A stretch of DNA of 21,157 nucleotides from a virus: UHGV virus genome UHGV-0323647; one strand, given 5' to 3'. Below, in pieces: positions 1,050 through 21,157 of the stretch. Under the pieces are notes generated by a model that worked only from the letters and a program-made list of their open reading frames with translations, searched no databases and was not told the DNA's origin. Position 1 is the first letter of the stretch. Every line of letters starts with the position of its first letter. Made by a program: the position numbers and the translations under genes.

Positions 1050-1058
1050 GAATCCTCT

Positions 1059-1238
1059 ATGACAAGCGTCGTTGATCTTGGTAAGGAGAAGAAATTCCCA
1101 ATTACTCAAGAGCTATATGAGCGGCTGGAAAGCGTCATCCATGATTACGATGGTGAAATCAGTTTATGCGAGGCGATTGGCACACTAGAATTGCTGAAGC
1201 AGTCACTGATTGAAAGCGCGAAAGAGTCCTCAGCCTGA
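1059..1238 (+). CDS. hypothetical small protein (59 aa); not in the supplied ORF track (below its apparent length cutoff)
   Basis: ATG at 1059 to TGA 1236-1238, translated by hand as MTSVVDLGKEKKFPITQELYERLESVIHDYDGEISLCEAIGTLELLKQSLIESAKESSA. AGGAA lies 7 nt upstream. It fills the otherwise empty gap between the 95-aa ORF and terS. Confidence 0.45.
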   Translation: MTSVVDLGKEKKFPITQELYERLESVIHDYDGEISLCEAIGTLELLKQSLIESAKESSA

Positions 1239-1261
1239 AATAACGATTAAGTGAGATGAAT

Positions 1262-1684: not shown

Positions 1685-3096
1685 CCTCGATTAATCCTAT
1701 CTTTGAACCGTTCATTGAGGCGCATCGCTACAAAGTCGCCAAAGGCGGTCGAGGTAGCGGTAAATCATGGGCAATTGCGAGGCTGCTTGTTGAAGCGGCG
1801 CGTCGGCAGCCAGTGCGTATTCTCTGCGCTCGTGAACTGCAAAACAGTATCAGCGATTCGGTAATCCGGCTGCTTGAAGATACTATCGAGCGTGAAGGGT
1901 ATTCGGCTGAGTTTGAAATTCAGCGTTCAATGATTCGCCATCTCGGAACGAACGCTGAATTCATGTTCTACGGCATCAAAAACAACCCAACGAAGATTAA
2001 ATCGCTCGAAGGCATTGATATCTGCTGGGTGGAAGAAGCGGAAGCGGTAACAAAGGAATCGTGGGATATCCTGATACCAACCATCCGCAAGCCGTTTTCC
2101 GAAATATGGGTGAGCTTTAACCCGAAGAACATCCTCGACGATACCTATCAGCGATTCGTTGTAAACCCTCCTGATGATATTTGCCTGCTGACGGTGAACT
2201 ACACCGACAACCCGCACTTTCCTGAAGTTCTCCGTCTGGAGATGGAAGAGTGTAAACGCAGAAATCCGACACTATATCGTCACATCTGGCTTGGTGAGCC
2301 AGTGAGCGCAAGTGACATGGCAATCATCAAACGTGAATGGCTTGAAGCCGCAACCGATGCGCACAAGAAACTCGGATGGAAAGCGAAAGGCGCTGTTGTT
2401 TCTGCGCATGACCCATCAGATACAGGGCCAGATGCTAAAGGTTATGCATCGCGCCACGGTTCGGTTGTTAAGCGCATTGCCGAAGGTCTGCTGATGGATA
2501 TCAACGAGGGTGCTGACTGGGCTACTTCGCTGGCAATTGAAGACGGCGCTGACCATTACCTGTGGGATGGTGATGGCGTCGGTGCGGGCCTACGCAGACA
2601 GACAACGGAAGCGTTCTCCGGCAAGAAAATCACCGCCACGATGTTCAAGGGCAGTGAATCGCCATTCAATGAAGATGCACCGTATCAAGCCGGAGCATGG
2701 GCTGATGAAGTCGTACAGGGTGACAACGTTCGCACTATTGGCGATGTATTCCGCAATAAGCGAGCGCAATTCTATTACGCGCTGGCTGACAGGCTGTATC
2801 TGACATATCGGGCGGTTGTTCACGGTGAGTATGCAGACCCCGACGACATGCTGAGTTTCGACAAAGAAGTGATAGGCGAGAAGATGCTGGAGAAGCTGTT
2901 TGCAGAACTGACGCAGATTCAGCGCAAATTCAATAACAACGGGAAGCTGGAGCTTATGACTAAGGTCGAAATGAAGCAGAAGCTCGGTATTCCATCTCCT
3001 AACCTGGCTGATGCGCTGATGATGTGTATGCATTGCCCGGAGTCGGCTGCGCAACCCGACTATTCCAGTTACTCAATTCCTTGTGGTGTAGGTTGA
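1681..3096 (+). CDS. terL: terminase large subunit (TerL: ATPase plus nuclease)
   Basis: 471 aa. Walker A P-loop KGGRGSGKS near the N-terminus. Size and position immediately after terS and before portal are typical; translationally coupled to terS. Confidence 0.93.
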   Translation: MTSINPIFEPFIEAHRYKVAKGGRGSGKSWAIARLLVEAARRQPVRILCARELQNSISDSVIRLLEDTIEREGYSAEFEIQRSMIRHLGTNAEFMFYGIKNNPTKIKSLEGIDICWVEEAEAVTKESWDILIPTIRKPFSEIWVSFNPKNILDDTYQRFVVNPPDDICLLTVNYTDNPHFPEVLRLEMEECKRRNPTLYRHIWLGEPVSASDMAIIKREWLEAATDAHKKLGWKAKGAVVSAHDPSDTGPDAKGYASRHGSVVKRIAEGLLMDINEGADWATSLAIEDGADHYLWDGDGVGAGLRRQTTEAFSGKKITATMFKGSESPFNEDAPYQAGAWADEVVQGDNVRTIGDVFRNKRAQFYYALADRLYLTYRAVVHGEYADPDDMLSFDKEVIGEKMLEKLFAELTQIQRKFNNNGKLELMTKVEMKQKLGIPSPNLADALMMCMHCPESAAQPDYSSYSIPCGVG

Positions 3097-3097
3097 T

Positions 3098-5296: not shown

Positions 5297-5386
5297 TTAA
5301 CCCATAACGTGCAATGGCTGTCTTTATGAGGCCTGGCACCCTATTGCCTTCCGATGGGCTGAACATCGAGTAAACAGGGGTAACAA

Positions 5387-6280
5387 ATGGACCAGATGGC
5401 AGAAAACACACCAGAAGTTGAAATCGAAACCGACGCGTCAGAGCAGATTCCTGATGATGTCGAACTGGCTGAAGAAGTCGAAACAGAAGATGGCAGTGAG
5501 TCCTCTGGCAATGATGCAGAGGAAGCTACTGAAACTGATGACGACGAATCAGAACAGGAATTCTACTTTGGTGACGAAAAGCTGGATTCGCCAACCAGCG
5601 AAGATAGCGCAGAGCATGGACTGGTAAAACACCTGCGCAAGACGATTAAAGAGAAAGACCGTGAGCTGAAAGAGCTGATGCGTCAGTCTCAGAAACCCGT
5701 CGAGCAGCAGCCGGTAATCACTCAACCACCGCGAATGCCAAAACTGGATGATGAGGACATCGGTTTCGATGAAGAAATCTACCAGCAACGCATGGCTAAG
5801 TGGGCAGAGGATAACGGCAAGTACCAGCAACAGGAGATGGCTCGCAAGCAGAAGGAGCAGGAGCTTCAGGCTGCCTATCAAGAGCGATTATCCAAATATC
5901 AGCAACGTGTTAAGGCTCTCAAAGTTCCTGGCTATCAGGAAGCTGAGCAGGCCGTACTCGAGGAAATCCCCATCGAGACACAAAACGCGATCCTGTTTGA
6001 GTCAGAGAAGCCGGAAATCGTTGTTCTGGCGCTCGGTCGCAACGCTGAACTGCGCAAGCAACTGGCAGAAGCTACCAACCCCGTAGCAATTGGTCGTCTG
6101 CTGGAACGTATCGAATCGAAGGCCAGAATCATGCCAAAAGCAAAAACCACGGCAGCCACAACCCCGACAGTTAAGGGGAGCAACGGCGCAGTAATCAACA
6201 ACCTCGACAAACTGAAAGCCAAGGCGCTGGAAACTGGTGACTGGACGCCGTATTTCGCCGCTAAAAAGGCAAAAAAATAA
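5387..6280 (+). CDS. scaffolding protein (P22 gp8-like)
   Basis: 297 aa, highly acidic N-terminus (many D/E), charged helical middle, basic C-terminal tail (...FAAKKAKK). Sits between portal and coat. Confidence 0.85.
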   Translation: MDQMAENTPEVEIETDASEQIPDDVELAEEVETEDGSESSGNDAEEATETDDDESEQEFYFGDEKLDSPTSEDSAEHGLVKHLRKTIKEKDRELKELMRQSQKPVEQQPVITQPPRMPKLDDEDIGFDEEIYQQRMAKWAEDNGKYQQQEMARKQKEQELQAAYQERLSKYQQRVKALKVPGYQEAEQAVLEEIPIETQNAILFESEKPEIVVLALGRNAELRKQLAEATNPVAIGRLLERIESKARIMPKAKTTAATTPTVKGSNGAVINNLDKLKAKALETGDWTPYFAAKKAKK

Positions 6281-6298
6281 CCTATCGGAGCATTAAGC

Positions 6299-7552
6299 AT
6301 GGCTAACCAATTAGCAAAAGACCTTGAAATCATGTTCGAAAACTACGTTGAAGGCTTTGAGGCCGCCTGCGTAGTTTCCCGTAACGCTAAAAAATTCCGT
6401 CCCGGTGATACTGCAATGCAGCGAGCAGGTGATGTTCTGTATCGTCCGCAGCATTACCACATGAACATTGAAGAAGGCCTCGATCTCAGCAGCAAAACAC
6501 CAACAGCACTGGTTCAGCGCCTTGTTCCTTCTGTGTTCAAGGAGCCGAAAAACATTCTGTACACTCTGGATGCGCGTGAAATGCGTGACCCTGAACATAA
6601 AACTGAAGCTGGTCGCGCCGCAGGTATGCGCCTTGCTGCACAGATTGACTCTGACCTGATTTCCATGGTTACGCAGCGTGCTACTAACGTGATCACGATG
6701 GCTGACTCAACCACAGGTTCACAGGGCCGTGATTTGTGGAACTGTGCGGCAGGTATTGATGCCACTATGACGGCGATTGGTGTACCGCAGGGTATCAACC
6801 GTCGCTCTTTCTGGAACCCCTTCAACTACAAAGACCTTGCTGGCGAGCTTGGTCACCGTGCCTATGCTCAGGGTGCAACCCTGACAGCATACGAAAAAGC
6901 GCAAATCCCTCCGGTTGCGTCCTTCGATAGCTACAAGACCGATATTTCTGGTCGTGTTCCGAAGGGTACAGCAACTTCCATTGCGCTGGCAGCAGCACCT
7001 GCGCACAAGGTTGAAGCGAAAGATGCTAACGATATGCCAGTGGATAACCGACAGGGGACCATTACGGTATCTGCTGAAGGTTTGCAGGTTGGTGATGCGT
7101 TCACCATCGCAGGGGTGAATTCCGTACACCAGATCACCAAAGATACCACCGGGCAGCCGCAGGTATTCCGCGTTCTGGCAGTAAGCGGAACGACAGTAAC
7201 TATCTCCCCGAAAATTCTGCCGCCTGACAACGCGGATGTCGCCAGCCGACCATATGCAAACGTTGATGCTAACGCGGCAAATAGCGCAGCAATCACCATT
7301 CTCAACAAGAACGCAGCACCTGCTAACCTGTTCTGGGCTGATGGTTCTGTTGAGCTGATGTACGGCAAACTGGCGTTCCCGACTGGTCAGGGTCCACAGG
7401 TAATGACAGCAACCACCGAGCAGGGCGCTACGCTGATCATGTCTTACGCCTTCGACCACATCAAAGGCGTAACCACTGCTCGTTTCACCACTCTGTATGG
7501 TTGCTCTGTACTTGTTCCTGAATATACGGGCATCGTTATTGCCGGGCAGTAA
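6299..7552 (+). CDS. major capsid (coat) protein (P22 gp5-like, HK97 fold)
   Basis: 417 aa ORF with GGAG 10 nt upstream of ATG 6299. Position after scaffold and size close to P22/Sf6 coat (about 420-430 aa). Followed by an intrinsic terminator. Confidence 0.9.
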   Translation: MANQLAKDLEIMFENYVEGFEAACVVSRNAKKFRPGDTAMQRAGDVLYRPQHYHMNIEEGLDLSSKTPTALVQRLVPSVFKEPKNILYTLDAREMRDPEHKTEAGRAAGMRLAAQIDSDLISMVTQRATNVITMADSTTGSQGRDLWNCAAGIDATMTAIGVPQGINRRSFWNPFNYKDLAGELGHRAYAQGATLTAYEKAQIPPVASFDSYKTDISGRVPKGTATSIALAAAPAHKVEAKDANDMPVDNRQGTITVSAEGLQVGDAFTIAGVNSVHQITKDTTGQPQVFRVLAVSGTTVTISPKILPPDNADVASRPYANVDANAANSAAITILNKNAAPANLFWADGSVELMYGKLAFPTGQGPQVMTATTEQGATLIMSYAFDHIKGVTTARFTTLYGCSVLVPEYTGIVIAGQ

Positions 7553-7557
7553 TTTTG

Positions 7558-7582
7558 GTGGGGCTTCGGCCCCATTTTTATT
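7558..7582 (+). terminator. rho-independent terminator/attenuator just after the coat gene
   Basis: GGGGC-TTCG-GCCCC hairpin (7560-7573) followed by ATTTTTATT, 8 nt after the coat stop codon. Confidence 0.6.
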
Positions 7583-7593
7583 GGGAGAAGACA

Positions 7594-7782
7594 ATGGCAC
7601 GAACAATGCTCTATAAGCCTGGCAACATGATCACCTGTGGTCAGTTTGCTGTCGATTACATCATTGTTGATGACGAAGAAGTTAAATCTCACCTGAAAAA
7701 AGGTTGGGTAAAAACTCCTGAAGAAACCGCAACGAAGCAAAAAGTGGCTAAGGCGGAAGAAGATGGCGAAAACGAAGGGTGA
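7594..7782 (+). CDS. small hypothetical virion-module protein (62 aa)
   Basis: ATG at 7594 preceded by GGGAGAAG. The ORF-track start at 7555 (no ATG there; first in-frame ATG is 7594) lies inside the terminator hairpin and is unlikely. Acidic C-terminus. Overlaps the next gene by 20 nt. Confidence 0.5.
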   Translation: MARTMLYKPGNMITCGQFAVDYIIVDDEEVKSHLKKGWVKTPEETATKQKVAKAEEDGENEG

Positions 7783-8224
7783 TCTCGTTCTAAAGGCTTT
7801 ACGAAAAGCCGGGCTGTATTCCAATGCCACGTTGACAGATGCTGACCCTCAGGCAATTGAAGATGCTATTAATGACCTCGAAGACATGATGGCAGCATGG
7901 CAGGCGAAAGGTATCGAGCTTGGGTATCAGTTTGCTGATACAGAAAACGGCATCATGCCGTTACCTGACGATGATTCAGGTATCCCTGCATGGGCAAATG
8001 ATGGCGTCGCTTTGAAACTCGCTGTGCAAGTGTGCATGGATAACGTCATTCAGCCATCAGACGCTCTCCTTACCGCTGCTGACAGTGCATATCAAACAAT
8101 CTGTATCGCTTTAACCAAAATACCACCACTTGAGCGGCGAAATGACATGCCTCGCGGTAGTGGTAACAAAAGCGCGTTTACGTGGAATCGGTTTTACATC
8201 GAGAAAGATGATCCGAGTACGTGA
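7763..8224 (+). CDS. head-completion / tail-adaptor protein (P22 gp4-like)
   Basis: 153 aa. N-terminus AKTKGDLVLKALRKAG...TLTD...DLEDMMAAW and C-terminal ...MPRGSGN... resemble P22 gp4 as I recall it. Correct position after coat. Confidence 0.85.
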   Translation: MAKTKGDLVLKALRKAGLYSNATLTDADPQAIEDAINDLEDMMAAWQAKGIELGYQFADTENGIMPLPDDDSGIPAWANDGVALKLAVQVCMDNVIQPSDALLTAADSAYQTICIALTKIPPLERRNDMPRGSGNKSAFTWNRFYIEKDDPST

Positions 8225-8233
8225 GGTGAATAA

Positions 8234-9652
8234 ATGCCGATTCAGCAACTTCCGCTTATGAAAGGCGTCGGCAAAGACTTTCGAAACGCCGACTATATCG
8301 ACTATCTGCCAGTGAATATGTTGGCTACACCAAAAGAAATCCTTAACAGCAGCGGATATCTTCGCTCATTCCCGGGCATTGCCAAACGTTCTGATGTGAA
8401 CGGCGTATCGCGCGGCGTCGAGTACAACATGGCGCAGAGTGCTGTTTATCGCGTGTGTGGTGGGAAGCTCTACAAAGGCGAAAGTGAAGTCGGTGATGTT
8501 GCCGGAAGTGGTCGCGTATCAATGGCGCATGGTCGGACATCTCAGGCTGTAGGCGTTAATGGTCAACTGGTCGAGTATCGCTATGATGGCACGGTTAAAA
8601 CCGTCTCAAACTGGCCTACTGATAGCGGATTCACTCAGTATGAGTTAGGTTCAGTCCGCGACATTACACGCTTACGTGGGCGTTATGCGTGGTCAAAAGA
8701 CGGCACGGATTCATGGTTTATCACTGACCTTGAAGACGAATCGCATCCTGACCGTTACAGCGCACAATATCGCGCAGAATCGCAGCCGGACGGTATCCTC
8801 GGCATCGGAACATGGCGAGACTTCATCGTCTGCTTTGGTTCATCGACGATTGAATATTTTTCCCTGACTGGGGCAACCACCGTTGGTGCCGCTTTGTATG
8901 TCGCACAGCCATCTCTTATGGTGCAGAAAGGCATTGCCGGAACTTACTGCAAAACGCCGTTTGCTGATTCCTATGCGTTTATCAGCAATCCGGCAACAGG
9001 TGCTCCGTCTGTATACATCATCGGCTCCGGTCAGGTATCACCAATCGCCAGCGCGAGCATTGAGAAAATTCTCCGCTCCTACACTGCTGATGAACTGGCT
9101 GATGGCGTGATGGAATCGCTGCGATTTGATGCGCATGAGCTGCTGATTATCCATCTTCCGCGCCATGTTCTCGTGTACGACGCATCTTCAAGCGCCAATG
9201 GTCCGCAATGGTGTGTACTGAAAACAGGCTTGTATGACGATGTGTACCGCGCTATCGACTTCATTTACGAAGGAAATCAGATAACGTGCGGCGATAAGCT
9301 GGAATCGGTGACCGGGAAATTGCAGTTCGATATCAGCAGTCAGTACGACAAGCAGCAGGAACACCTGCTGTTTACTCCGTTGTTCAAAGCGGATAACGCC
9401 AGAGTGTTTGACCTTGAAGTTGAATCTTCAACTGGCGTTGCGCAGTACGCTGACCGCCTGTTCCTCTCTGCAACCACTGACGGCATCAATTACGGTCGTG
9501 AGCAGATGATTGAGCATAATGAACCGTTCGTTTACGACAAACGCGTTTTGTGGAAGCGTGTCGGGCGAATCAGGAAAAATGTTGGCTTCAAATTGCGCGT
9601 TATCACGAAGTCACCTGTCACTCTGTCTGGCTGTCAGATAAGGATTGAGTAA
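8234..9652 (+). CDS. head-completion / tail-hub protein (P22 gp10-like)
   Basis: 472 aa, the same length as P22 gp10. N-terminus [35 protein letters not shown] matches my recollection of gp10. GAGGTG upstream of the ATG. Confidence 0.9.
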
Positions 9653-10500
9653 TGGCGGATTCGAATCTCAATGTGCCGGTAATCATCCAAGCTACGCGGC
9701 TCGATACATCAGTTCTTCCACGCAATATCTTCTCGCAGTCATATCTGCTGTACGTTATCGCACAGGGTACTGATGTTGGTAACGTGGCGAACAAGGCCAA
9801 CGAGGCCGGACAGGGCGCTTATGATGCACAAGCCAGGAACGATGAGCAGGATGTGATTCTGGTCGATCACGAAATTCGACTGGCATCGGCTGAAGCGAAG
9901 ATTCAGGACCACGAAACAAGGATCACTAACGCAGAAGCGGCGATAGTCGGCCTTGATTCACGATTAACGACAGCAGAAAACGATATTGATTACCTGACTG
10001 ATGAAGTTGTCGCCATTCAAAACACGCTTTCCGACCATGAAACGCGCATCGATGCTCTGGAGTATGCCACTACTCGCAAGAAGTCAGAGGTTGTTTACTC
10101 TGGTGTATCTGTAACCATCCCGACAACGCCGACCAACCTTGTTAGCCTGCTGAAAACGCTCACGCCGTCATCCGGCTCGTTGACACCATTCTTCGACACC
10201 GTTAACAACAAGATGGTTGTGTTCAACGAGAACAAAACGCTGTTCTTCAAGCTGTCTATTGTCGGGGCGTGGCCCAGCGGAACCGCCAACAGGTCAATGC
10301 AGCTAACCTTTTCCGGCTCTGTTCCTGACACGTTGGTCAGCAGTCGTAATGCGGCGACAACAACCGACAACATCCTGTTAGCTACGTTCTTCAGCGTGGA
10401 TAAAGACGGCTTTCTTGCCACAAATGGCAGTACGTTAACCATTCAGTCGAATGGTGCGGCTTTTACTGCCACAACCATCAAGATAATCGCGGAGCAGTGA
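9652..10500 (+). CDS. tail needle / cell-envelope-penetrating protein (P22 gp26-like, with C-terminal knob as in Sf6-type needles)
   Basis: 282 aa. N-terminus [43 protein letters not shown] matches the gp26 hub-binding tip. Heptad-like coiled coil with repeated DHETRI. Start overlaps the gp10 stop (TAATG). Confidence 0.85.
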
Positions 10501-10955
10501 TGATTCAGTTCAAACCAACGCGAAACATCGACCTGATAGAAGCCGTGGGAAATCACCCAGACATTATCGCCGGGAGCAACAACGGTGATGGATACGACTA
10601 CAAACCTGATTGCCGTTACTTTGAGGTGAACGTGCACGGGCAGTTCGGCGGCATTGTTTACTATCAGGAGATTCAGCCGCTGACATTCGATTGCCACGCC
10701 ATGTACCTGCCAGAGATTCGCGGCTTCAGCAAGGAAATCGGGCTGGCGTTCTGGAGATACATTCTGACTAACACCACCGTTCAGTGCGTCACATCGTTCG
10801 CTGCACGCAAATTCCGCCACGGGCAGATTTACTGCGCAATGATTGGCCTTAAGCGTGTAGGAACCATCAAGAAATACTTCAAAGGCGTGGATGACGTGAC
10901 GTTTTACAGCGCCACACGCGAAGAACTAATCGACTTCCTGAATCACGGGAGATAG
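10500..10955 (+). CDS. gp14-like virion/ejection-associated protein
   Basis: ATG at 10500 overlapping the gp26 stop (TGATG), with GGAG 5 nt upstream. The ORF-track start at 10497 is a GTG. Position corresponds to P22 gene 14. Confidence 0.75.
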   Translation: MIQFKPTRNIDLIEAVGNHPDIIAGSNNGDGYDYKPDCRYFEVNVHGQFGGIVYYQEIQPLTFDCHAMYLPEIRGFSKEIGLAFWRYILTNTTVQCVTSFAARKFRHGQIYCAMIGLKRVGTIKKYFKGVDDVTFYSATREELIDFLNHGR

Positions 10956-10957
10956 CC

Positions 10958-11650
10958 ATGTTATATGCATTTAAACTGGGCAGAAAACTGCGCGGTGAGG
11001 AACCTTATTGCCCTGAAAAAGGCGGGAAAGGTGGCAGTTCTGATAAAAGCGCAAAGTATGCAGCAGAAGCTCAGAAGTATGCCGCAGACCTGCAAAATCA
11101 GCAGTGGCAGACGATCATGAAAAACCTTGCTCCGTTCACGCCTCTTGCGGAGCAGTATGTTAACCAGCTTCAGAACCTTTCCAGTCTAGAAGGTCAGGGG
11201 CAGGCACTTAATCAGTATTACAACTCTCAGCAGTATAAAGACCTTGCAGGTCAGGCTCGTTACCAGAGTCTTGCTGCTGCGGAGGCGACGGGTGGACTTG
11301 GTTCGACAGCCACAAGCAATCAACTGGCTACGATCGCGCCGACACTAGGTCAGTCTTGGTTATCAAATCAGATGAGCAATTACAACAATCTGGCAAACGT
11401 TGGGCTTGGTGCGCTGCAAGGTCAGGCAAACGCCGGGCAGACGTACGCCAACAACATGAGCAGCATTGCACAGCAAAGCGCAGCTCTTGCCGCTGCTAAT
11501 GCCAATAAACCATCAAGTCTTCAGACTGCAATTAGCGGTGGCACGTCTGGTGCGATTGCCGGTGCAGGTCTTGCCAGCCTTTTGGGAACATCAACACCTT
11601 GGGGCGCTGGAATTGGTGCTGGTATCGGATTGCTTGGCTCGTTGTTTTAA
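10958..11650 (+). CDS. ejection (internal virion) protein, gp7-like
   Basis: 230 aa. N-terminus MLYAFKLGRKLRGEEPYCPEKGGKGGSSDKSAKYAAEAQKY and Gly/Ala-rich hydrophobic C-terminus (...GAGIGAGIGLLGSLF) match P22 gp7 as I recall it. Confidence 0.75.
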   Translation: MLYAFKLGRKLRGEEPYCPEKGGKGGSSDKSAKYAAEAQKYAADLQNQQWQTIMKNLAPFTPLAEQYVNQLQNLSSLEGQGQALNQYYNSQQYKDLAGQARYQSLAAAEATGGLGSTATSNQLATIAPTLGQSWLSNQMSNYNNLANVGLGALQGQANAGQTYANNMSSIAQQSAALAAANANKPSSLQTAISGGTSGAIAGAGLASLLGTSTPWGAGIGAGIGLLGSLF

Positions 11651-11659
11651 GGGGTAATC

Positions 11660-12967
11660 ATGGCTACTTGGCAAGGAACAAACGGCGGATTGTTGGCTGG
11701 TATCGGCGGCGTCAACTCAAACGCTCCGAGCGTAAATGACATCGGCAATACGCTTCAGCTTATCAGGCAGAACAATGATATTGAGCGTTCAGGCGCTAAC
11801 AATGTTGGGCTGACTGCTTTGCAAGGTCTTCAGCAGGAAAAGCAGGCTCAGCGGCAGAAAGAATTTCAGCAGGCGTACGCTAATGCTTATGCGTCTGGTG
11901 ATCGCGGTGCTTTGCGTCAGTTGGCTACTCAATATCCAGACCAGATTGAATCCGTTCGTAAAGGCATGGGATTCATTGATGAAGATCAGCGTAATTCTAT
12001 CGGCACCTTAGCGGCTGGCGCACGCCTTGCGTCATCGTCTCCAGAAGCAATGCAATCATGGCTGCAAAACAACGCCAAGGAACTGACTCGCGTCGGTGTT
12101 GACCCTAATAACGTTGCTCAGATGTATCAGCAGAATCCTTCAGGATTTGGTGAGTTTGTTGATCACCTTGGAATGGCTGCGCTTGGTCCGATTGATTACT
12201 TCAATGTTCAGGATAAGATGGCAGATCGCCAGCTGACCATGCGCGGTCAGGATCTGAACTCGCAAACCGCCGCCCGGAATCAGGCAATCACAATGCGTGG
12301 GCAAGATATCCAGGCAAATTTAGGTCAGCAGCGCATTAATCTGGACGCAGAAACAAACCGCATTAACTACGAAAATAAGCGCCTTGACCGGATGCTATCA
12401 GCAGAAACTAACGACCTGAAGCGCCAGGAAATACAGAGCCGCATAGCAGCCAACAACCAGAAGTTGCAGCAGAAGCAGCAAGAGCTAAATGATGGCTACA
12501 AAGACGGCATCAACACTCTCACAACCAGCATGTTCACTCTGAACGATATCGTTAATTCTCCTGCACTTAAGAGCATTACAGGCTTACGTGGAGCAATCCC
12601 CAACGTTCCAGGCTCACAAGCTGCAGACACTCAGGCGCGACTTGATACCTTTAAATCCCAAGCATACCTGACAGCGGTTCAGGCCATGAAAGGACTTGGT
12701 GCACTTTCTGATGCCGAGGGCAAAAAGCTCGACCAGGCTGTTGGTTCGCTGCAGAACTCGCAGAGCGAGGAGTCCTTTCGTCGCAACGCTGGCGTCATCC
12801 TGAACACGCTCAACCAGAAGCGTAATGAGGCGGTTGGTAAGTACGTTCAGCAAAACGGTATCAAGCGAGTGGAAGCGCCTCAGGCTTCTATAGATTACCT
12901 GAAGCAGCACCCCGAGCTGTCAATCGACTTCATTAATCGCTACGGATATCTTCCATCTTTGGGGTAG
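11660..12967 (+). CDS. ejection (internal virion) protein, gp20-like
   Basis: 435 aa, Gln/Asn-rich low-complexity helical protein, second of three consecutive ejection-protein genes. GGGG upstream of the ATG. Confidence 0.7.
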   Translation: MATWQGTNGGLLAGIGGVNSNAPSVNDIGNTLQLIRQNNDIERSGANNVGLTALQGLQQEKQAQRQKEFQQAYANAYASGDRGALRQLATQYPDQIESVRKGMGFIDEDQRNSIGTLAAGARLASSSPEAMQSWLQNNAKELTRVGVDPNNVAQMYQQNPSGFGEFVDHLGMAALGPIDYFNVQDKMADRQLTMRGQDLNSQTAARNQAITMRGQDIQANLGQQRINLDAETNRINYENKRLDRMLSAETNDLKRQEIQSRIAANNQKLQQKQQELNDGYKDGINTLTTSMFTLNDIVNSPALKSITGLRGAIPNVPGSQAADTQARLDTFKSQAYLTAVQAMKGLGALSDAEGKKLDQAVGSLQNSQSEESFRRNAGVILNTLNQKRNEAVGKYVQQNGIKRVEAPQASIDYLKQHPELSIDFINRYGYLPSLG

Positions 12968-12970
12968 TAA

Positions 12971-15601
12971 ATGGCTAATTACCGTGATTTGTTAGAGCAG
13001 GCTGGCGCACGTTACGGTGTGCCAGAAGGGTTGATGACTGCACTGGGTGCCAAGGAGTCTTCTTACAACCCTGCAGCAGTAAGCTCCTCCGGGGCTGTAG
13101 GATTGACTCAGGTCATGCCTGGGACATGGCGTGATATGGGTTATACCGATGAGCAAATGCAAAACCCCGAATATCAGGCTGACGCTGGCGCGCGCTATCT
13201 GGCAAAGATGTACCAGCAGTTTGGTAACTGGCGTGACGCTCTTCAGGCTTATCACGACGGTCCCGGCAACGTTATGAAGGCAAAGCGTGGTGAATATACG
13301 CCAGGACCTGAAGGCCGCGGTTACGTTGATGATCGCTTTGCTCAATGGGCGGGTGACCCGGTGACAGACTCAACAGTCGAACAGCGCGCCACCTCTGCAA
13401 AGGTACATCCTCAGCAAGACCCTAACAACCCGTTTGCACAACTGGAAGTACAGTCATCCGAACAAGTATCGGCATCAGGTGTGCAGTCAGACCCAAATAA
13501 TCCATTTGCTCAGATTGAGCAGCAGGCAGCCAGTCAGCAGCCACCTCAACCCGTAAGTTCTGTCGCACCGAAACCTGTTCAGCAACAAACAGTTAATCAG
13601 GCCAATAATGAACCAGCACGTGAAGAACCATCATTGATGCAACAAGCTGGCGATTGGCTCACAGGTGGTCAAAGTGCAGGGCAAATTGCAGAGCAGGCTG
13701 GTCGTGGTCTGGTAAACATACCATTTGACGTATTGCAGGGTGGCGCAAGTCTGATTAATGCAATCAGCCAGGGGCTTGGTGGCCCCAAGGTTTTGGATGA
13801 TGTTTATCGTCCAGTAGATCGACCGACAGACCCCTACGCGCAAGCCGGTGAAACAATTGGCGGGTATCTCCTGCCAATTGGTACAGCGGCAAAAGCTGCT
13901 GGAGCGCCAGCAAAGCTCGCTGGAGATATCGGTTCCGCAGGAAACATGATTGCAGGTTCTCTTGCTGATGCTGCAAATCAGGAGGGCGACTTTGCACAAA
14001 ATGCTGCCATTAACGGTGGTATCAATATTGGTGCTCAAGGCGTTCTTTCAGGTGTCGGGCGCGTTATTGCGCCAAGGGTTTCACATGCTCTTGGTGGTGC
14101 AGCACTGAATTCTGCTAATGATGTTTCCAGGATGGCAAAGTCAGGTGCTGGGCGTCAGTCAATTGCCAGTCAGGCCGCTAATGTGTCCGAAGGTGTAGCA
14201 AAAGCGGCTGAGTCTGCTGGAATTGATATAAACGCATTAACACCAGGAATGCGATCTGGAAGTCGTGGAATTGCACAAGCCGAAGGCGCATTGGCATCAA
14301 CACCAGGAATTGTTCAGGACGCCCATCAGACAGCATTTAACGAAATATCATCAAAGTTAAGTCGAAACCTTGATGAATTTGGGGCCGCATCTGGAACGGC
14401 ATCAGAAAAAAGTGCGGCTATAAAACAAAGGATTCTTCAAAATCTTGATCAGATGAAGGATGCCGAGCGCGCGGCATGGGATGACGTGCGGTCAACAATG
14501 CCAAATCAAAAAGCAAGAATGCTAAATGGTAATGCCGTTATTCAGGCAGAGCGATCTGCTGGCATACCGCTTACTCCTGAAATGAAACAGTTTGTTCAGG
14601 CAAACAATCAAGGTGGAGTAACATTTGATGGCATGAAAGCATGGAGAGCGAAATTTGCTGATGCGGAGCAAAAATATAAGCGTAGCGGAGAGGCAAATGC
14701 GGCAAGGAGAGCAGGGGAAATACGCCGGGCAATTACTGATGATATGCGCACAATGGCGGAAAACGGCGGATTTCTTGATGACTGGCAGAAAGCTAATGAT
14801 CTGTCTAAAGCGAGGTTATCAGCACAAGAGAGTGCAGAGTCTGTTTTCGGGCGTGATTTGGCAACAGATGCACTGATTACGAATGGAGTAAAATCCCTTC
14901 AATCATCGTCAGCTAAAGGTCTTAATGGTCCTGCTGGGTTCCATTCTATGATCCGCGCGCTGCCAGAATCAGAGCGTGTTCCTGCTATATCATCAATGTT
15001 GCAAGATGCTATCTCGCATGGTGTACGTGGTGGCAAAGCTGATGCAGCAGGAATTAACCATATCGCAGGGATACTTACCCCACAAAATGTAAAAGCCATT
15101 AGCAGATATTCCTCAGATCTCGGAAGAATTGCTGATGCATATGGCACTCTTGCAAGAGCAGCAGTGAAACCTCAGCAGTATATTGAAAGAACAGGGAGAA
15201 CTGCCAATGTACTACGCGATCTGGATGCTGGTTTATCCAACGTCACATCAACAGTGTTAAATGCAATTGCCAACTCAACATCAGGTGCCATTGTTGGTGG
15301 AGCAGGAGGGGGCATTGCAGGCGCTGCCGCAGGTGCTTTAGTTGGCGCCGGGTTAAAAGGTGCTGTATCTAAAATTGCCACCACACGTAGTGGTCGGTAT
15401 GCGATAGAGAAAGCAGTTCAGGAAGCAACTAAAGCAGTAAGAGCAGGCGGAAGTAAAGAAGCATTAGCGGCGGCGGAACGCAGATTTATGGCAAATAAAG
15501 CTGCCGTAAAAGCGATACGTGATACAGTCGGAAACGAAGAGTTCAATCGCTTAGCGAGGGCTGGCATTGTAGCGTCGCTAAGCGGAATAGCACAGGAGTA
15601 A
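12971..15601 (+). CDS. ejection (internal virion) protein, gp16-position, with N-terminal lytic-transglycosylase (SLT)-like domain
   Basis: 876 aa. The N-terminal roughly 110 aa carry SLT-family motifs (GAKESSYNP with candidate catalytic Glu, [18 protein letters not shown]). The remainder is Ala/Gly/Gln-rich with a hydrophobic Gly-rich segment ([22 protein letters not shown]). Confidence 0.8.
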
Positions 15602-15925
15602 TTAATCATCCATGGATGGATTGAGCTTATCTCGTGTTGATGTGGCGATTTGTCCTACATTTCTAAGCCAAGATTTCAAATCCTTGATATTGTCATTGAT
15701 TTCATGAATATCTTCTTTTTTTAATCTTTTAACATTATTTTCAATAATTTCAATGGATTGCTCAATATCAGATATAGTGAATGATAGTTTGTTCTTCTCA
15801 TCTTTTATTGAGTTTTTAAGTGCTTCGTTCTCAGTCTTGAGGTCAGATATCTTTTGTTTTAAAGATGCCAGTTGGTACTGAACCACAATGAGTGCGATAG
15901 CTATCACGATAACTGTTGTATACAC
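15602..15925 (-). CDS. small membrane-anchored coiled-coil protein (107 aa), unknown function; candidate exclusion/abortive-infection factor
   Basis: GTG start at 15925 preceded on the - strand by AAGGAGG (complement of 15931-15937) with a 5-nt spacer. N-terminal hydrophobic helix YTTVIVIAIALIVVQY, then a K/E-rich helical region. AT-rich. Stop codon directly abuts the gp16-like stop (convergent, zero spacer). Confidence 0.65.
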   Translation of the reverse strand: MYTTVIVIAIALIVVQYQLASLKQKISDLKTENEALKNSIKDEKNKLSFTISDIEQSIEIIENNVKRLKKEDIHEINDNIKDLKSWLRNVGQIATSTRDKLNPSMDD

Positions 15926-16216
15926 ACCAACCTCCTTAGTTTTGTGCAGGATACCAGATGATAATGTATTGGTGGAGTGGTGTGTGAAAACGTGTCAACG
16001 ACAAACCATCCACAACTTGGACGAATGATTTAGCAAAAAGTGCTATTTTTGGTGTTTAGTGTCATAGAAAAGTGAATAGCTCACTTTTCAACATTGCATG
16101 AAACTTGCAGGAAATGTGACATTACCTTATAGGTAACTTCGGCGAAAATGCAGTAAATGTGAAACGTAATGATTTAAACGTGTCGAGAAAGTGGTTGTAA
16201 GTTAGCCTCTGAAGGA

Positions 16217-16245
16217 TTGATGACAGCTTTGTTATGGTATTAAAT
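16217..16245 (+). promoter_or_regulatory. candidate sigma70 promoter for the Panacea-like operon (TTGATG, 15 bp spacer, extended -10 TGgTATTAA)
   Basis: TTGATG at 16217-16222 and TG-n-TATTAA at 16235-16243, in a 368-bp AT-rich divergent intergenic region. Identified by eye only; a perfect TTGACA at 16251-16256 lacks a good -10. Confidence 0.3.
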
Positions 16246-16299
16246 GCAACTTGACACAGTTGTATACATAGCTGCGGCTATCAAGATGGAGGTATGTTT

Positions 16300-16743
16300 A
16301 TGCTCACTTGTTTTGATGTCGCCGACTACTTCTTGGCGCATTGCGATGAAGAAAGTGGCGACATTATCTCTAACCTAAAAATTCAGAAGTTGACGTATTA
16401 TGCCCAAGGGTTTTCTCTGGTTCTTCTGGGTAAGCCGCTATTTAATGAGAAAATTGAAGCCTGGATGCATGGGCCAGTAGTTCCTGAATTGTATCGTAAA
16501 TATAGGGACTGTGGTAACGGAGCTTTACCTGCGCCAGAAAACTTTGACGCTAAAAAATTCAGTGAAGATGAAATTGAATTGCTGGATGAGGTGTATAAAG
16601 TTTATGGTCAGTTTTCTGCCTGGAAACTGCGCAATATGACTCACGAAGAGCAGCCATGGAAAGATGCTTACATTGAGGGTGCGGTTAGCCAAGAAATCAC
16701 ACTTGATTCTATGAAAGGTTTTTTCAAAACGTTAATTAACTGA
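16300..16743 (+). CDS. Panacea-domain (DUF4065, SocA/GepA-like) protein; putative antitoxin/immunity component
   Basis: Segment NLKIQKLTYYAQGFSLVLLGKPLFNEKIEAWMHGPVVPELYRKY matches the conserved core I associate with DUF4065/Panacea proteins. GGAGG at 16288-16292 sits 7 nt before ATG 16300; the ORF-track ATG 16294 is only 1 nt after the SD. Confidence 0.7.
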   Translation: MLTCFDVADYFLAHCDEESGDIISNLKIQKLTYYAQGFSLVLLGKPLFNEKIEAWMHGPVVPELYRKYRDCGNGALPAPENFDAKKFSEDEIELLDEVYKVYGQFSAWKLRNMTHEEQPWKDAYIEGAVSQEITLDSMKGFFKTLIN

Positions 16744-16748
16744 CGTGT

Positions 16749-17171
16749 ATGTCTAGAGTTAAGGGAAGAATAAAACAGAGGGATAAAGAGAGCTCTGCTA
16801 CTGTTGGCCTCTCTATCCATCACGAATCTCATGATGTAGACAAAAGTCCGCCTGTATTTTCTCTTAGATACCTACAAAAGGGGTATTGCCTAGATTGCTG
16901 CCAAAAGCATGAAAAGGCAGCATTTGCAGATAGGCTGTTCAGGTTAAGTCAGATGTCATGGGATGAGATACGAAAATCTGATAAACACGGGCTTGGGACG
17001 GAAAAAATTGCCAGAAACGCGATAAAGGCTCCGATTCCTAAGCATGTTACTCAAGATGTGGATTTCATTGCGTTCAGATTTTGCTCTAAGGCACCTATGG
17101 TTGGTTATAAGATAGGAGCCACTTTTTATGTCTTATGGCTCGACAGGGAGTTCAAGCTATACAAGCACTAA
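16749..17171 (+). CDS. hypothetical protein (140 aa) co-operonic with the Panacea-like gene; candidate toxin/effector partner
   Basis: ATG 5 nt after the upstream stop with no SD of its own, suggesting translational coupling. No recognised domain. Basic N-terminus, CLDCC cysteine cluster, C-terminal strand ...GATFYVLWLDREFKLYKH. Followed immediately by an intrinsic terminator. Confidence 0.6.
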   Translation: MSRVKGRIKQRDKESSATVGLSIHHESHDVDKSPPVFSLRYLQKGYCLDCCQKHEKAAFADRLFRLSQMSWDEIRKSDKHGLGTEKIARNAIKAPIPKHVTQDVDFIAFRFCSKAPMVGYKIGATFYVLWLDREFKLYKH

Positions 17172-17172
17172 T

Positions 17173-17198
17173 AAAACCCACCGTCAGGTGGGTTTTTT
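17173..17198. terminator. intrinsic terminator (potentially bidirectional) ending the Panacea-like operon
   Basis: AAAACCCACC-GTCA-GGTGGGTTTTTT: GC-rich 6-bp stem, tetraloop, T6 tract; A-tract on the 5' side gives a U-run on the other strand too. Confidence 0.75.
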
Positions 17199-17211
17199 AT
17201 AAGGAGCAATC

Positions 17212-17331
17212 ATGATTTACCCATCAAACAACCCACCAGTTTGCCTGATTGGATGCCAGCCTTGCAGTTTTTATGGAATTAATTATGCCATGCTCAAGAG
17301 CCTTGTTAGCATCCAAAATGGTCGAGTCTGA
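17212..17331 (+). CDS. questionable small ORF (39 aa) with strong RBS; may be the 5' part of a frameshifted/decayed gene
   Basis: AAGGAG at 17201-17206, 5-nt spacer, ATG 17212. Product [39 protein letters not shown]. Overlaps long open frames on both strands that lack credible starts. Confidence 0.25.
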
Positions 17332-17614
17332 TATCAGGGATGCCCACCTAATATGGGTTCCGATGTCGATATTGAACGTCTCAACGAAGCGATCAAGATC
17401 GTTATCGAGGCATTTCCCGTACTCTCTCAATCTGGCATGGTCGGCGGCTGGGGAGGCAAAGCCCCATAATAGAGGATGTAACAGGAATCTTGATAATGGG
17501 TTTGCGAAACGTTCTGAGCCAGACGGACCAACGAATCTTTCCGCATGGATGAGACTTAAGAATAAAGAATTACCTCCTTCAGTTCATAACTACTGACAGA
17601 TAACCAACGCAACG

Positions 17615-17639
17615 ACCCAGCTTCGGCTGGGTTTTTTTA
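17615..17639 (+). terminator. strong rho-independent terminator upstream of the tailspike gene
   Basis: ACCCAGC-TTCG-GCTGGGT stem-loop followed by TTTTTTT; same architecture as the 17173-17198 terminator. Confidence 0.8.
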
Positions 17640-17696
17640 TGCCCAAAATTCACCGTAGCCATGCTGCGGCGATTCCTTGTATCTGGAGCAAATTAA

Positions 17697-19475
17697 ATGA
17701 CAGATTCAATAAATGCCAATGTTGTAGTTAGCATGCCTTCGCAACTCTTCACTATGGCGCGTTCTTTTAAAGCCGTAGCCAATGGCAAAATTTATATCGG
17801 TCAGGTTGACACTGACCCGGTAAATCCAGAAAACCAGATTCAGGTTTATGTGGAGAGCGAAGACGGTTCTCACGTTCCTGTTTCTCAACCAATCATCATT
17901 AACGCTGCTGGTTACCCTGTATATAACAGACAGATTGCCAAGTTCGTAACTGTACAGAATCACTCCATGGCTGTGTATGATGCGTATGGTGCACAACAAT
18001 TCTATTATCCTGATCTACTGAAATATTCTCCAGACCAGTTAAGGGCTGAGCTTTCTGGCCCTGATGGCGCATCTCTGGTTGGTTATGGAGATGAAACTGT
18101 CAAAGATGCTCTTGACAATAATGCCCATAAAATAGACACATTGAGGAGTGACTTGGCTGCTGATGATGGCTTTCGCCACATAGGCAACTTTCTCAATTTA
18201 GAGGCGCTGAGGGATTCAATGCCATTAGTTGCTGGAGAAATTGTTTATGTAGCTTCAGCAGCAAGTGCTACAGCAACTGAAAAACATTATGGTGGTGGGT
18301 ATTTCCAGTCTTTCGACAATAGCACATCACAGATTGCCGATGATGGAGGGATTGTTATTGTTCCATCAACTGGAACGTTGGCGTGGCGTCGCATTAATTT
18401 CACGGCCTACGATATGCAGTTTTGGGGGGTTAAGCCTGATGGTGCGACGGATAACGCGGAAGCCATTACGAAGGCGACGCAGTATGCAAAAGATAATCAT
18501 GTTGAACTTGTATTCCCTGCTGGTAATGTAAAGTCCTCACAAGCATTTCCTTTTTACTCCAGAATGTCAGTAAGGGGAGCCGGCAGAGAAAGCTCATTTT
18601 TCAGTAAAACAACAAATAACAAGTTTACCATTACATCAGAGGTGGAAGTAGACGCGCTCATTGTATTCATTCCTGATGTTTATGACCCAAGTGGCGTAAC
18701 TATTGATACATTTTGCTTTAAACCAAAACTTGAGGGCATTACTTTCCAGAGAGATGATTTGACTTCAGATAACATGTGTTACTACAGCGTGTGGGCAGAA
18801 AAATTAGCTGCTCCAATCATGAGGGATTTAAATTTTATAGGGCATTATATCGGAATGTATGGTAAAAACTGGTTTTTATTTGAGGCAACATCTGTTCAGT
18901 TTTTAGGAGTGAACGGTAGAACTTTCCAAGGCATAAGTTGCTTAAATTTGAGTGGGCCAACATACTTCCTTTCAGGAACAAGCCTTAACTGGAATCTTGT
19001 AAGTGTTGTAAACGCACAAAATGCCTACGAAATTTCAGGGCAGCAGTATAGTCATCTTAATAACTGTACAGCAGAAGGAATTAAACCAATGCCAGGAGAG
19101 ACACTTGCCACTGCATTCCGTTTTAAGAATCCTACATCAATAACTTTAACCTCATGCGGAACTGAAAATGTTCAGGGAGAACAATTCAGGATAGAGATGG
19201 CGCCCACACCATCATTTAAAGGTTCGGTTGTAATCAATAACTTTCAAGTTGTGGATCAGGTCAATCCATCCACGCCAACTAAATTTTTTGTTATTGATTC
19301 TGCTAATGTTGGTACATTATCCGTATCATTAATTGGTGGTGAATTAACAAGAAACACTACGCTATCAAACCTACAACAACCAACCGTATCAGGCACAAAC
19401 TGTGTGTTAAATAATGTTGGGTGCTGGGTTGAGTCACCTTCTGTTTCTGGAGGCGCTGTCTACAAGACGCTTTAG
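17697..19475 (+). CDS. tailspike protein: P22-type head-binding N-domain fused to a divergent beta-helix-like receptor-binding/depolymerase body
   Basis: 592 aa. N-terminal roughly 110 aa ([59 protein letters not shown]...) match the P22 gp9 head-binding domain as I recall it. Downstream the sequence turns AT-rich and carries motifs typical of pectate-lyase-like tailspikes ([23 protein letters not shown]). Confidence 0.9.
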
Positions 19476-19476
19476 A

Positions 19477-19506
19477 ATGAGAGGCGGGTAGCCGCCTCAT
19501 TTTTTG
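19477..19506. terminator. bidirectional intrinsic terminator shared by convergent tailspike and acyltransferase genes
   Basis: AATGAGAGGCGG-GTA-GCCGCCTCATT hairpin followed by TTTTT on the + strand. The minus-strand acyltransferase stop codon lies inside the stem. Confidence 0.7.
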
Positions 19507-20636
19507 ATGAATCTGTACTCTACATACTTAAACGTGTATGCAGTGACAATTGTTGTAATAGATACAAGAGATAGTATAAGCGTCCAAAATCCAACGGCAG
19601 ATATATTATTTAAATTGAATATAAAGCCAATAAATTTTATAACCAATGCGTTAATTATTAGGTGAAGAAGATAAGAGCTATAACTAGCCTCGCCAAGATA
19701 GACAAGAGGTTTAAATGTGAAAACGGAAGGCTTTGTCATTACAATTACATTAAATAGGAGAGTGGTTATTAAAAACCTTTCCCATCCATATCCGCTAAAC
19801 ATCGTGTAAAGTAAGTAAATAATAGTTAATGCTGAAGCAGCGGAAAAGAAATTGTTTGTTATCTTATTGCTACTTAACATTACAGATACCATTTTCATCC
19901 TATTGAAAAGAATGGCAGACAAAGCTCCAGATATAAAATAAACCCAAACAACCTGCCCAGAATACAAGTCATTTGCTGCATATCCAACTGAGAGCACAGA
20001 ACCGATAACTGCAATTGATTTGAATCTAATAGCTGCACATATCACTGGAAGCATGCAATAGAATTTCCATTCATATGGAAGTGTCCATATCACCGCGTTT
20101 AATGAGTAAGTCCTGAATCCATTCACCCATATATCACTTCCGAAAAATCCAAAGCCAAATAGATTTATTGCCTGCCTTGCTGTTGTAGTTAAATCCTGAC
20201 CACCATGCGACCACATCAATGTAAGAACTAGAACTATAGTTGATGCTATCATGTACATAGGAACAAGGCGTTTAACTCGAGATACGAAAAACATCTCCCA
20301 GTTAATTTTATTGCCTGTTTTTATGATCTTATCAAAGAATAAAAAACCTGTTATACAAAAGAAAATTTGCACACCAACATCACCAGCATGAGCGAAAACC
20401 CAGAAGTTAGATGTGTTAACTGATAATGGATTAAATCCATTATTTGACAGAGAAAATACAGCATGGTTTAAAACAACAAGAAGAGCCGCTATACCTCGAA
20501 TGCCATCAATATGAAGATAACGCTTCCCTGAGAAATCAATATGATTGTAAAAGTTAAAGCATACAAAGACTCTGTTTATTCCCATTGATGCCGCAAGACA
20601 TAACAAGGCAATCCCAATATTAAATAAAGTTTCCAT
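19497..20636 (-). CDS. oac: integral-membrane Acyltransferase-3 family protein; likely O-antigen O-acetyltransferase (serotype-conversion gene)
   Basis: 379 aa, many hydrophobic segments. N-terminal signature RYLHIDGIRGIAALLVVLNHAVF typical of Acyltransferase-3 proteins. Strongly AT-rich. Located between tailspike and integrase, where Sf6 carries oac. The symbol is by analogy, not proven orthology. Confidence 0.8.
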   Translation of the reverse strand: METLFNIGIALLCLAASMGINRVFVCFNFYNHIDFSGKRYLHIDGIRGIAALLVVLNHAVFSLSNNGFNPLSVNTSNFWVFAHAGDVGVQIFFCITGFLFFDKIIKTGNKINWEMFFVSRVKRLVPMYMIASTIVLVLTLMWSHGGQDLTTTARQAINLFGFGFFGSDIWVNGFRTYSLNAVIWTLPYEWKFYCMLPVICAAIRFKSIAVIGSVLSVGYAANDLYSGQVVWVYFISGALSAILFNRMKMVSVMLSSNKITNNFFSAASALTIIYLLYTMFSGYGWERFLITTLLFNVIVMTKPSVFTFKPLVYLGEASYSSYLLHLIINALVIKFIGFIFNLNNISAVGFWTLILSLVSITTIVTAYTFKYVEYRFIKK

Positions 20637-20941: not shown

Positions 20942-21157
20942 TCACTCCACCTTTTCATCAAGCCAGTCCGCCCACCACTGCATCATTTCTCTGCGCTTAT
21001 CGAGATACTGAGCATGGTTGTAAATCCCGCGCACAGATCCGCCGTTGGCATGTGCCAGTTGCACTTCAATAGCATCAGCGGGCCATTCGTGCTCGTTCAT
21101 AATCGTGCTGAATTCATGCCTGAATCCGTGACCGCTTTCCAGACCCTCATAGCCGAT
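20942..21157 (-). CDS. int: tyrosine integrase, C-terminal catalytic end (5' part beyond window)
   Basis: The reverse strand translates without stops to ...GHGFRHEFSTIMNEHEWPADAIEVQLAHANGGSVRGIYNHAQYLDKRREMMQWWADWLDEKVE*. This contains the tyrosine-recombinase box (HxxR ... catalytic Y in RGIYNH) and a P4-family-like WADWLD C-terminus. Not in the supplied ORF track because the start lies outside the window. Confidence 0.85.
   Translation of the reverse strand: MGYEGLESGHGFRHEFSTIMNEHEWPADAIEVQLAHANGGSVRGIYNHAQYLDKRREMMQWWADWLDEKVE

Follow-up and report, generated by a model that had tools for sequence, protein, structure and literature searches.

Phage HK97 encodes gp15, a small, single-pass membrane protein that is specified by a moron within the virion-gene region, is thought to be expressed from the prophage and acts in exclusion. 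In P22, the exclusion protein SieA is a multi-pass membrane protein of 164 residues whose gene is read in the direction opposite to the late operon from a slot between gene 16 and the tailspike gene, behind a ribosome-binding cassette. A single chromosomal copy of sieA together with 85 bp of its upstream region confers full exclusion, escape from SieA arises by mutation in the C-terminal portions of gp16 and gp20, induction raises sieA expression, and 22 of 66 sequenced P22-like phages, about a third, carry it (PMC10883804). The interval between gene 16 and the tailspike gene has been termed the 'ant moron' (PMC2629481). Here we analyze UHGV virus genome UHGV-0323647, a stretch of 21,157 nucleotides that we refer to as the window, and focus on hkcB, a short open reading frame (ORF) that directly adjoins gene 16. 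Like P22 sieA, hkcB lies in the slot between gene 16 and the tailspike gene, runs antisense to the late operon, begins behind the ribosome-binding cassette and encodes what is predicted to be a membrane protein. Our most useful result is that this cassette is shared with many alternative cargo genes.

The hkcB gene and its product

The features of hkcB and its surroundings to which we refer below are as follows.

12971..15601, plus strand: gene 16 homolog, ejection protein of 876 residues with an N-terminal SLT domain (Pfam SLT, E=2.2e-25)
15602..15925, minus strand: hkcB coding sequence, 107 codons for 107 residues, GTG start, stop at 15602-15604 included (phrog_5962 match, substitution rates)
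15626..15676, minus strand: most conserved motif, K-x-W-[LVI]-x-N-V-G-x-I-A-x-S-T-R-D-K, codons 84-100 (alignments)
15623..15859, minus strand: helical coiled-coil domain, codons 23-101 (heptad register, AlphaFold2)
15860..15916, minus strand: predicted N-terminal transmembrane helix, codons 4-22 (hydropathy maximum, K/R distribution)
15923..15956, minus strand: conserved translation-initiation cassette TGGTATCCTGCACAAAACTAAGGAGGTTGGTGTG, with the Shine-Dalgarno (SD) sequence AAGGAGG at 15931-15937 and GTG at 15923-15925
15961..15988, minus strand: promoter-like site TTCACA-16-CATTAT, a weak candidate found by scanning, in a stretch common to the region upstream of Emek gp14

The start of hkcB reads AACTAAGGAGGTTGGTGTG on the minus strand, with AAGGAGG (15937-15931) separated by the 5-nt spacer TTGGT from the GTG codon (15925-15923). 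At its other end, the hkcB stop codon (15602-15604) touches the TAA of gene 16 (15599-15601), TAA being followed directly by TTA with a gap of 0. The original prediction, made from the letters alone, had described a 107-codon minus-strand ORF whose stop abuts that of an 876-residue gene and whose GTG lies 5 nt after AAGGAGG, and both descriptions hold. By our own arithmetic, the chance of an open frame of 107 codons at 32% GC is ~2e-4 per frame. The median pairwise ratio of nonsynonymous to synonymous substitution rates (dN/dS) was 0.25, with a maximum of 0.51, across 335 pairs drawn from 33 distinct hkcB coding sequences, and the C-terminal quarter of the protein was under the strongest constraint (proportions of nonsynonymous and synonymous differences, pN and pS, of 0.12 and 0.51, respectively, between the window and HK620). 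A GTG start behind an SD is kept in 66 of 69 related loci (63 from IMG/VR, 5 phage or E. coli genome records, and the window), mostly as AAGGAGG with a minority of variant SDs. The protein measures 107-109 residues in nearly all loci, with one 101-residue variant, and 96-109 residues when two remote homologs are counted, and its conservation reaches down to 25-37% identity. The notion that hkcB is not a gene was rejected on this conservation and on dN/dS; hkcB is a real protein-coding accessory gene under purifying selection.

Two loci (L049 and L050) bear a 7-nt duplication within the SD cassette upstream of hkcB (AAGGAGGTTGGAGGTTGGTGTG), which creates two tandem SD-like motifs. A prophage of E. 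coli HCM-22C-2 (L197; NZ_AP038228.1, 1548173-1548259) has undergone a deletion that extends from the replication genes into hkcB and leaves only the first 29 hkcB codons, joined to a truncated pseudogene for a replicative helicase.

A homology search placed the product in phrog_5962 (E=5e-58, residues 1-107). It is 97% identical to the product of epsilon34 gene 14, 95% identical to CUS-3 HkcB and ~51% identical to HK620 HkcB; the SEN22 ORF, epsilon34 gene 14 and CUS-3 hkcB all encode proteins 93-97% identical to that of the window. Judged by these matches, the ORF is hkcB, a member of the catalogued phrog_5962 family of P22-like (Lederbergvirus) prophages, and is not new as a sequence. The window protein has each of the features that mark the family, namely a length of 107-109 residues, an N-terminal transmembrane helix, a C-terminal W-x-x-N-V-G and a gene that abuts a convergent gene 16. 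With hkcB of HK620 and CUS-3 and with epsilon34 gene 14, it has in common its length, GTG start, SD and stop-to-stop abutment with gene 16. It differs from them in its right-hand neighbor, a Panacea-type pair in place of hkcC, gene 15 or a YafO pair, and in the additional N-terminal SLT domain of its gp16. In the epsilon34 genome paper, the gene is listed as of unknown function within the ant moron, where the content between genes 16 and 9 varies (PMC2629481), a placement that agrees with the predicted accessory gene antisense to the late operon.

The family is narrowly distributed. A hidden Markov model search of 1.84 billion representative proteins returned 13 matches in total, with 5 clusters at E<1e-10. 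Among 5,426 complete E. coli genomes, 155 carry hkcB, in each case chromosomally, and these include K1 strains IHE3034, RS218 and CE10 as well as one isolate of sequence type 131 (ST131); it is also present in 5 distinct phages among 50,697 phage records. Neither the family alignment nor a Leclercia member detected a relative when scanned against the GTDB representatives. The HkcB family is known from P22-like prophages only, beside gp16.

HkcB begins with MYTTVIVIAIALIVVQYQLASL, for which the Kyte-Doolittle 19-residue maximum is 2.2 at residues 4-22. Outside this hydrophobic segment, the protein contains 16 K+R and 17 D+E with heptad periodicity, and AlphaFold2 models it as a single helix spanning residues 2-101 (mean predicted local distance difference test score 81.7), in line with the single N-terminal hydrophobic helix and K/E-rich helical domain that had been proposed. 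In the heptad register, L22, L29 and L36 form a zipper together with the near-invariant N33, a pattern that looks like a parallel dimeric zipper, and Q16 and Q18 are conserved within the hydrophobic helix. Residues invariant across the family are L29, L47, D78, W86, N89, V90 and G91, of which the last four remain unchanged down to 25% identity. No K or R precedes the hydrophobic helix in any of the 39 distinct family proteins, while 2-4 fall within the next 15 residues; by the positive-inside rule, this distribution predicts an N-out/C-in orientation, with the short N-terminus in the periplasm and the coiled coil in the cytoplasm. A PDB profile search with HkcB returned vimentin, GCN4 and designed coiled coils and nothing else, and a Foldseek search of BFVD with the HkcB model gave no match. 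Matches to SMC, Rad50, JetC, LmuB, DivIC and FtsL in PADLOC, NCBIfam and Pfam were sub-threshold coiled-coil matches and were rejected as compositional.

The slot beside gene 16 and its shared cassette

The sequence TGGTATCCTGC.CAAAACTAAGGAGGTTGGTGTG precedes hkcB, P22-type sieA and Emek gp14, which encodes a 129-residue secreted protein, and its core is invariant in the alignment. When the window was compared by megablast, a mosaic junction was found exactly at the hkcB start: DNA to its left resembles that of epsilon34 and CUS-3, DNA to its right resembles that of Emek, E212 and others, and ~35 nt at the junction are common to all phages matched, including carriers of P22-type sieA. The exact 19-nt core of the cassette, AACTAAGGAGGTTGGTGTG, is present in at least 120 IMG/VR loci (L077-L196). 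Among the matches listed, to which the counts in this paragraph and the next refer, at least 13 unrelated ORF families begin at the cassette GTG. They comprise HkcB (22 loci), the 129-residue secreted protein (16), a 109-residue protein with a transmembrane segment and coiled coil (13), a 62-residue protein with two transmembrane segments (12), SieA type A (11) and 8 smaller families. A strong hydrophobic segment is present in 11 of the 13 families, and a twelfth has a signal-peptide-like N-terminus.

Each slot family keeps a characteristic gap to gene 16 (-4, 0, 8, 17, 19, 22, 24 or 45 nt), and each is largely bound to one C-terminal type of gp16. The 109-residue family, with N-terminus MLEIVVLALGISCC, occurs in L089 and 12 other loci and is a second family of transmembrane and coiled-coil architecture. 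It has the same cassette and length class as HkcB and likewise no K or R before its helix, which is followed by KK and the coiled coil; the protein of the L089 type (MLEIVVLALGISCCVLYAGLAALKKQVKELD) is HkcB-like in this arrangement. Unlike HkcB, it is associated with a P22-type gp16 C-terminus and a 17-19 nt gap. BLAST cannot align the two families, and hhalign gave a probability of 51% over just 30 columns.

hkcB and sieA occupy the same slot and never occur together. Queried with SieA type A (phage As3), tblastn found nothing in the window or in ~70 hkcB loci, whereas the positive control matched; types B and C were not included in this search. The genes also differ in their distance from gene 16, which is 0 nt for hkcB and 22 nt for sieA, and in the gp16 C-terminal type at their side: gp16 ends in (I/M)AQE in 37 of 37 non-redundant HkcB loci, and SieA was found solely beside the P22-type C-terminus (9/9). 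The 120 nt that precede HK620 hkcB match the region upstream of P22-type sieA at 98% identity.

We next consider the gp16 partner itself. The window gp16 is a fusion in which residues 7-110 form an SLT lytic transglycosylase domain (Pfam E=2.2e-25) and residues 198-876 are 97.8% identical to epsilon34 gp16, which itself is without the SLT domain. A comparable SLT-gp16 of 870 residues is present in a distant prophage (L072). A long convergent ORF was readable in 64 loci, and in 63 of them its stop touches that of hkcB with no nucleotide between; the genes for the two remote HkcB homologs (37% and ~25% identity) lie 3-4 nt from a gp16-like gene. At the locus with 37% HkcB identity, gp16 is 56% identical to the window gp16 over its full length, SLT domain included. 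HkcB identity is lower than that of gp16 in two comparisons (51% vs 75% and 37% vs 56%). The single gp16 type and the parallel divergence indicate that hkcB co-diverged with one gp16 lineage, and it does not have the look of a recent import.

This bears on the base composition of hkcB. The gene is AT-rich relative to the flanking virion genes, as had been pointed out, with a GC content of 32.4% compared to 49.7% for gene 16 and 50.1% for window positions 1-15601. By codon position, its GC content is 0.42 at the first, 0.24 at the second and 0.315 at the third (GC3), and GC3 of gene 16 is 0.353; the low values at the first and second positions result from an amino acid composition rich in K, N, I, E and D. 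The original prediction took AT-richness as a signature of horizontal acquisition. We have downgraded recent acquisition because GC3 is close to that of gene 16 and because hkcB and gene 16 have diverged together.

As in other morons, hkcB is present in some syntenic relatives and absent from others and is dispensable for morphogenesis, and its slot accepts at least 13 alternative cargo families. It does not have a terminator of its own, its stop abutting gene 16, and in this respect it differs from morons of the HK97 gp15 type. No terminator-like site was found downstream of hkcB on the minus strand from 15602 to ~14380, and an Rfam search over 14800-17800 returned nothing relevant. hkcB follows mnt in the same orientation in the distant homolog P0022 and in CUS-3/IHE3034, and in several contexts it is the last gene of a leftward string that starts with mnt, a gene regarded as prophage-expressed (PMC2629481). 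In E. coli IHE3034 (L076) and CUS-3 (L002), two mnt-like genes, a 199-residue ORF and a YafO-family toxin gene precede hkcB on the same strand, the toxin gene ending 22 nt before the hkcB start. This gene order suggests that hkcB is co-transcribed from the mnt side in these two prophages. In the context of the window, hkcB is presumably expressed in the lysogen.

A possible role in superinfection exclusion

Because hkcB stands in the position of sieA behind the same cassette, does not co-occur with it and in HK620 has a nearly identical upstream region, SieA-like exclusion is a reasonable hypothesis; the predominance of envelope proteins in the slot and the association with one gp16 lineage point in the same direction. 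We therefore tentatively favor, with somewhat less than even confidence, a reading in which HkcB is a prophage-expressed inner-membrane exclusion factor, an analogue of SieA and not its homologue. Expression of HkcB would not depend on the late operon and would occur both in the prophage state and after induction, and the protein would be anchored in the inner membrane by its single N-terminal pass. Its helix of ~85 residues would most likely form a parallel homodimeric coiled coil on the cytoplasmic face, ending in the W-x-x-N-V-G motif, and the protein would block DNA delivery by superinfecting P22-like phages by disturbing the conduit formed by the ejection proteins gp16 and gp20. A role in the manner of P22 sieA or sieB had been raised in the original prediction; the sieA-like half is plausible on the strength of slot, cassette and exclusivity, while we found nothing for or against the sieB-like half. 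A more far-reaching version, which we regard as possible yet doubtful, holds that the slot adjacent to gene 16 is a swappable 'exclusion cassette' in which unrelated envelope proteins are matched to gp16 C-terminal types. Its constant ribosome-binding and junction sequence would permit small, unrelated envelope proteins to replace one another, each being retained next to the gp16 C-terminal type that it fits functionally. HkcB would then be matched to the HK620/CUS-3/epsilon34 lineage and, in contrast to SieA, would block from the cytoplasmic face, with the W-x-x-N-V-G tip of its dimeric coiled coil engaging the incoming gp16/gp20 conduit.

Several findings weigh against an exclusion role of this kind. 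HkcB and SieA have no similarity in sequence or architecture: SieA has 164 residues and multiple passes, compared to 107 residues, one transmembrane helix and a coiled coil in HkcB (4 hydrophobic segments vs 1 in the hydropathy scan), and the FxRYPxEAxxFNK motif of SieA is missing from HkcB. A domain predicted to be cytoplasmic is a less obvious means of blocking a conduit that spans the periplasm. The upstream identity seen in HK620 does not extend to the window, where just ~35 nt upstream of hkcB are in common with sieA and the rest is 97% identical to the region upstream of Emek gp14 (120 nt). Promoter-like sites near hkcB do not exceed the shuffled expectation (4 found vs 5.8 expected), and the candidate at 15988-15961, the sole one upstream of hkcB in the window, fares no better than shuffled DNA. 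Envelope proteins are not the only cargo of the slot, given that one family, of 140 residues, is without a membrane signal, and the association of hkcB with gp16 can be explained by physical linkage alone. Searches of PADLOC, NCBIfam and Pfam with HkcB gave nothing at threshold, and in the literature searched, phage hkcB is mentioned only in the epsilon34 paper, with no functional test found. A transcriptome study of LF82/Gally describes its HK620-like prophage as free of morons; because Gally may or may not carry hkcB, this was left out of the evidence.

We likewise considered whether HkcB acts after DNA entry, as an anti-phage or addiction-type membrane effector that mediates SieB- or RexB-like abortive infection or is a small membrane toxin. 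The interval from gene 16 to the tailspike gene is full of cargo resembling toxin-antitoxin systems (Panacea with the 140-residue ORF, the YafO pair of CUS-3/IHE3034, ClpP-like genes), HkcB is small, membrane-anchored by prediction and could oligomerize, and it evolves faster than gp16. SieA, the sole characterized protein of the slot, nonetheless acts at DNA entry (PMC10883804). The right-hand neighbors of hkcB vary and leave it without a conserved partner gene, PADLOC returned nothing above noise, and a simple pore-forming toxin would not be expected to have so long and conserved a soluble helix with a specific motif at its C-terminus; on balance, we consider such an effector unlikely. A function in lysogenic conversion or host physiology, for example in cell division or envelope stress as an FtsB/FtsL/DivIC-like or YhcB-like factor, was raised by a weak match to DivIC (PF04977, E=3.5e-4, residues 7-45) and weak matches to FtsL models. 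The predicted HkcB transmembrane helix runs directly into the leucine zipper and contains Q16 and Q18, a layout that we take to be FtsB-like. In FtsB, FtsL and Rz, the N-terminus carries positive charge and the zipper lies in the periplasm, whereas the lack of N-terminal K/R in 39 of 39 family members predicts the opposite topology for HkcB. The PF04977 match reached 20.8 bits where the cut-off is 28.9, the FtsL models (E 0.007-0.016) were far under their cut-offs, and neither FtsB nor FtsL appeared in the PDB profile search. We discounted the DivIC-, FtsL- and Rz-like matches because of this opposite predicted topology and because the PDB search retrieved generic coiled coils; with the family confined to P22-like prophages beside gp16, a host-physiology function appears quite unlikely.

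The strict zero-gap linkage of hkcB to one gp16 lineage, with which it has co-diverged across genera, could instead mean that HkcB serves the phage's own cycle. It might act with gp16 in membrane targeting or handling, protect against self-reinfection at lysis, or tune late or tailspike expression through convergent transcription. There is no terminator between the convergent hkcB and gene 16, the ant moron has been credited with a possible effect on late read-through into the tailspike gene (PMC2629481), and the induction of sieA (PMC10883804) would fit such a role. However, many P22-like phages are without hkcB, as its presence in so few of the phage records illustrates, and it is therefore not essential for gp16 function; Sf6-type phages are without the ant moron altogether (PMC2629481). 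Moreover, dN/dS of 0.25 and the excess of pS over pN at the C-terminus indicate that the protein matters, and not merely antisense transcription. We judge a function in the phage's own cycle improbable. Still further from our expectation, and in our estimate highly improbable, is that HkcB is an Rz-like i-spanin or another coiled coil that spans the periplasm. Although its 100-residue AlphaFold2 helix would by our estimate measure roughly 150 Å, and PHROG returned weak matches to Rz-like spanin families (E ~1e-3), these matches are at the noise level for coiled coils. hkcB is not part of the lysis cassette, runs against the late operon, has no embedded or adjacent outer-membrane spanin gene and no embedded lipoprotein ORF, and encodes a protein whose C-terminus, given the absence of K/R before the helix in all 39 proteins, is predicted to be cytoplasmic.

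What this analysis adds to the catalogued family is the purifying selection on hkcB, its fixed abutment and its tie to one gp16 lineage, the cassette in common with sieA and at least 11 other families, the exclusivity with sieA and the upstream identity in HK620. For now, hkcB is a catalogued hypothetical gene with a sharper hypothesis that a plating experiment can test. If hkcB and the other cargo families are exclusion factors, then nature has assembled at this locus a small collection of non-homologous blockers of podovirus DNA delivery, which would also allow the passage of gp16 and gp20 across the inner membrane to be studied genetically. An exclusion role would also bear on the phage susceptibility of clinically relevant strains (K1, ST131).

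Neighboring genes in the window

The window represents the late region of a P22-like (Lederbergvirus) prophage, in which the ejection genes come after ORFs for terminase, portal, scaffold and coat. The remaining features on either side of gene 16 and hkcB are as follows.

10958-11650: gene 7 homolog, ejection protein gene
11660-12967: gene 20 homolog, ejection protein gene
16294-16743: gene for a Panacea (SocA-like) domain protein of 149 residues
16749-17171: partner ORF of 140 residues (phrog_8366), 5 nt after the Panacea gene
17249-17633: 115-residue ORF like the C-terminal part of the antirepressor Ant (ant remnant), then a terminator
17614-17633: strong terminator, GACCCAGCTTCGGCTGGGTT then a T-run, just before the tailspike gene
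17697-19475: tailspike gene
19497-20636, minus strand: 379-residue Acyl_transf_3 protein

The Panacea gene and the 140-residue ORF probably constitute a toxin-antitoxin or defense pair; the 140-residue ORF weakly matches both PADLOC NsnC (E=1.8e-7) and the MAG6450 family. The pair adjoins both hkcB and Emek gp14. The original prediction had also suggested that hkcB might work together with the Panacea operon. This partnership is not borne out, as the pair neighbors hkcB in only 10 of 66 loci, the window counted, and at least 9 other arrangements (about 10) occur. Right-hand neighbors in those arrangements include hkcC, epsilon34 gene 15, a YafO-family toxin pair, a pair of 111- and 121-residue ORFs, an ORF of 343-355 residues, mnt and others.

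We detected no mnt or arc in the interval of the window, and the immI region therefore appears to be a deleted remnant, as annotated in HK620. Beyond the tailspike gene, the Acyl_transf_3 protein is probably an O-antigen acetylase and its gene a lysogenic-conversion gene. On the minus strand at 20942-21100, we recognized by eye what appears to be the C-terminal end of an integrase, which would place the prophage end near the right edge of the window.

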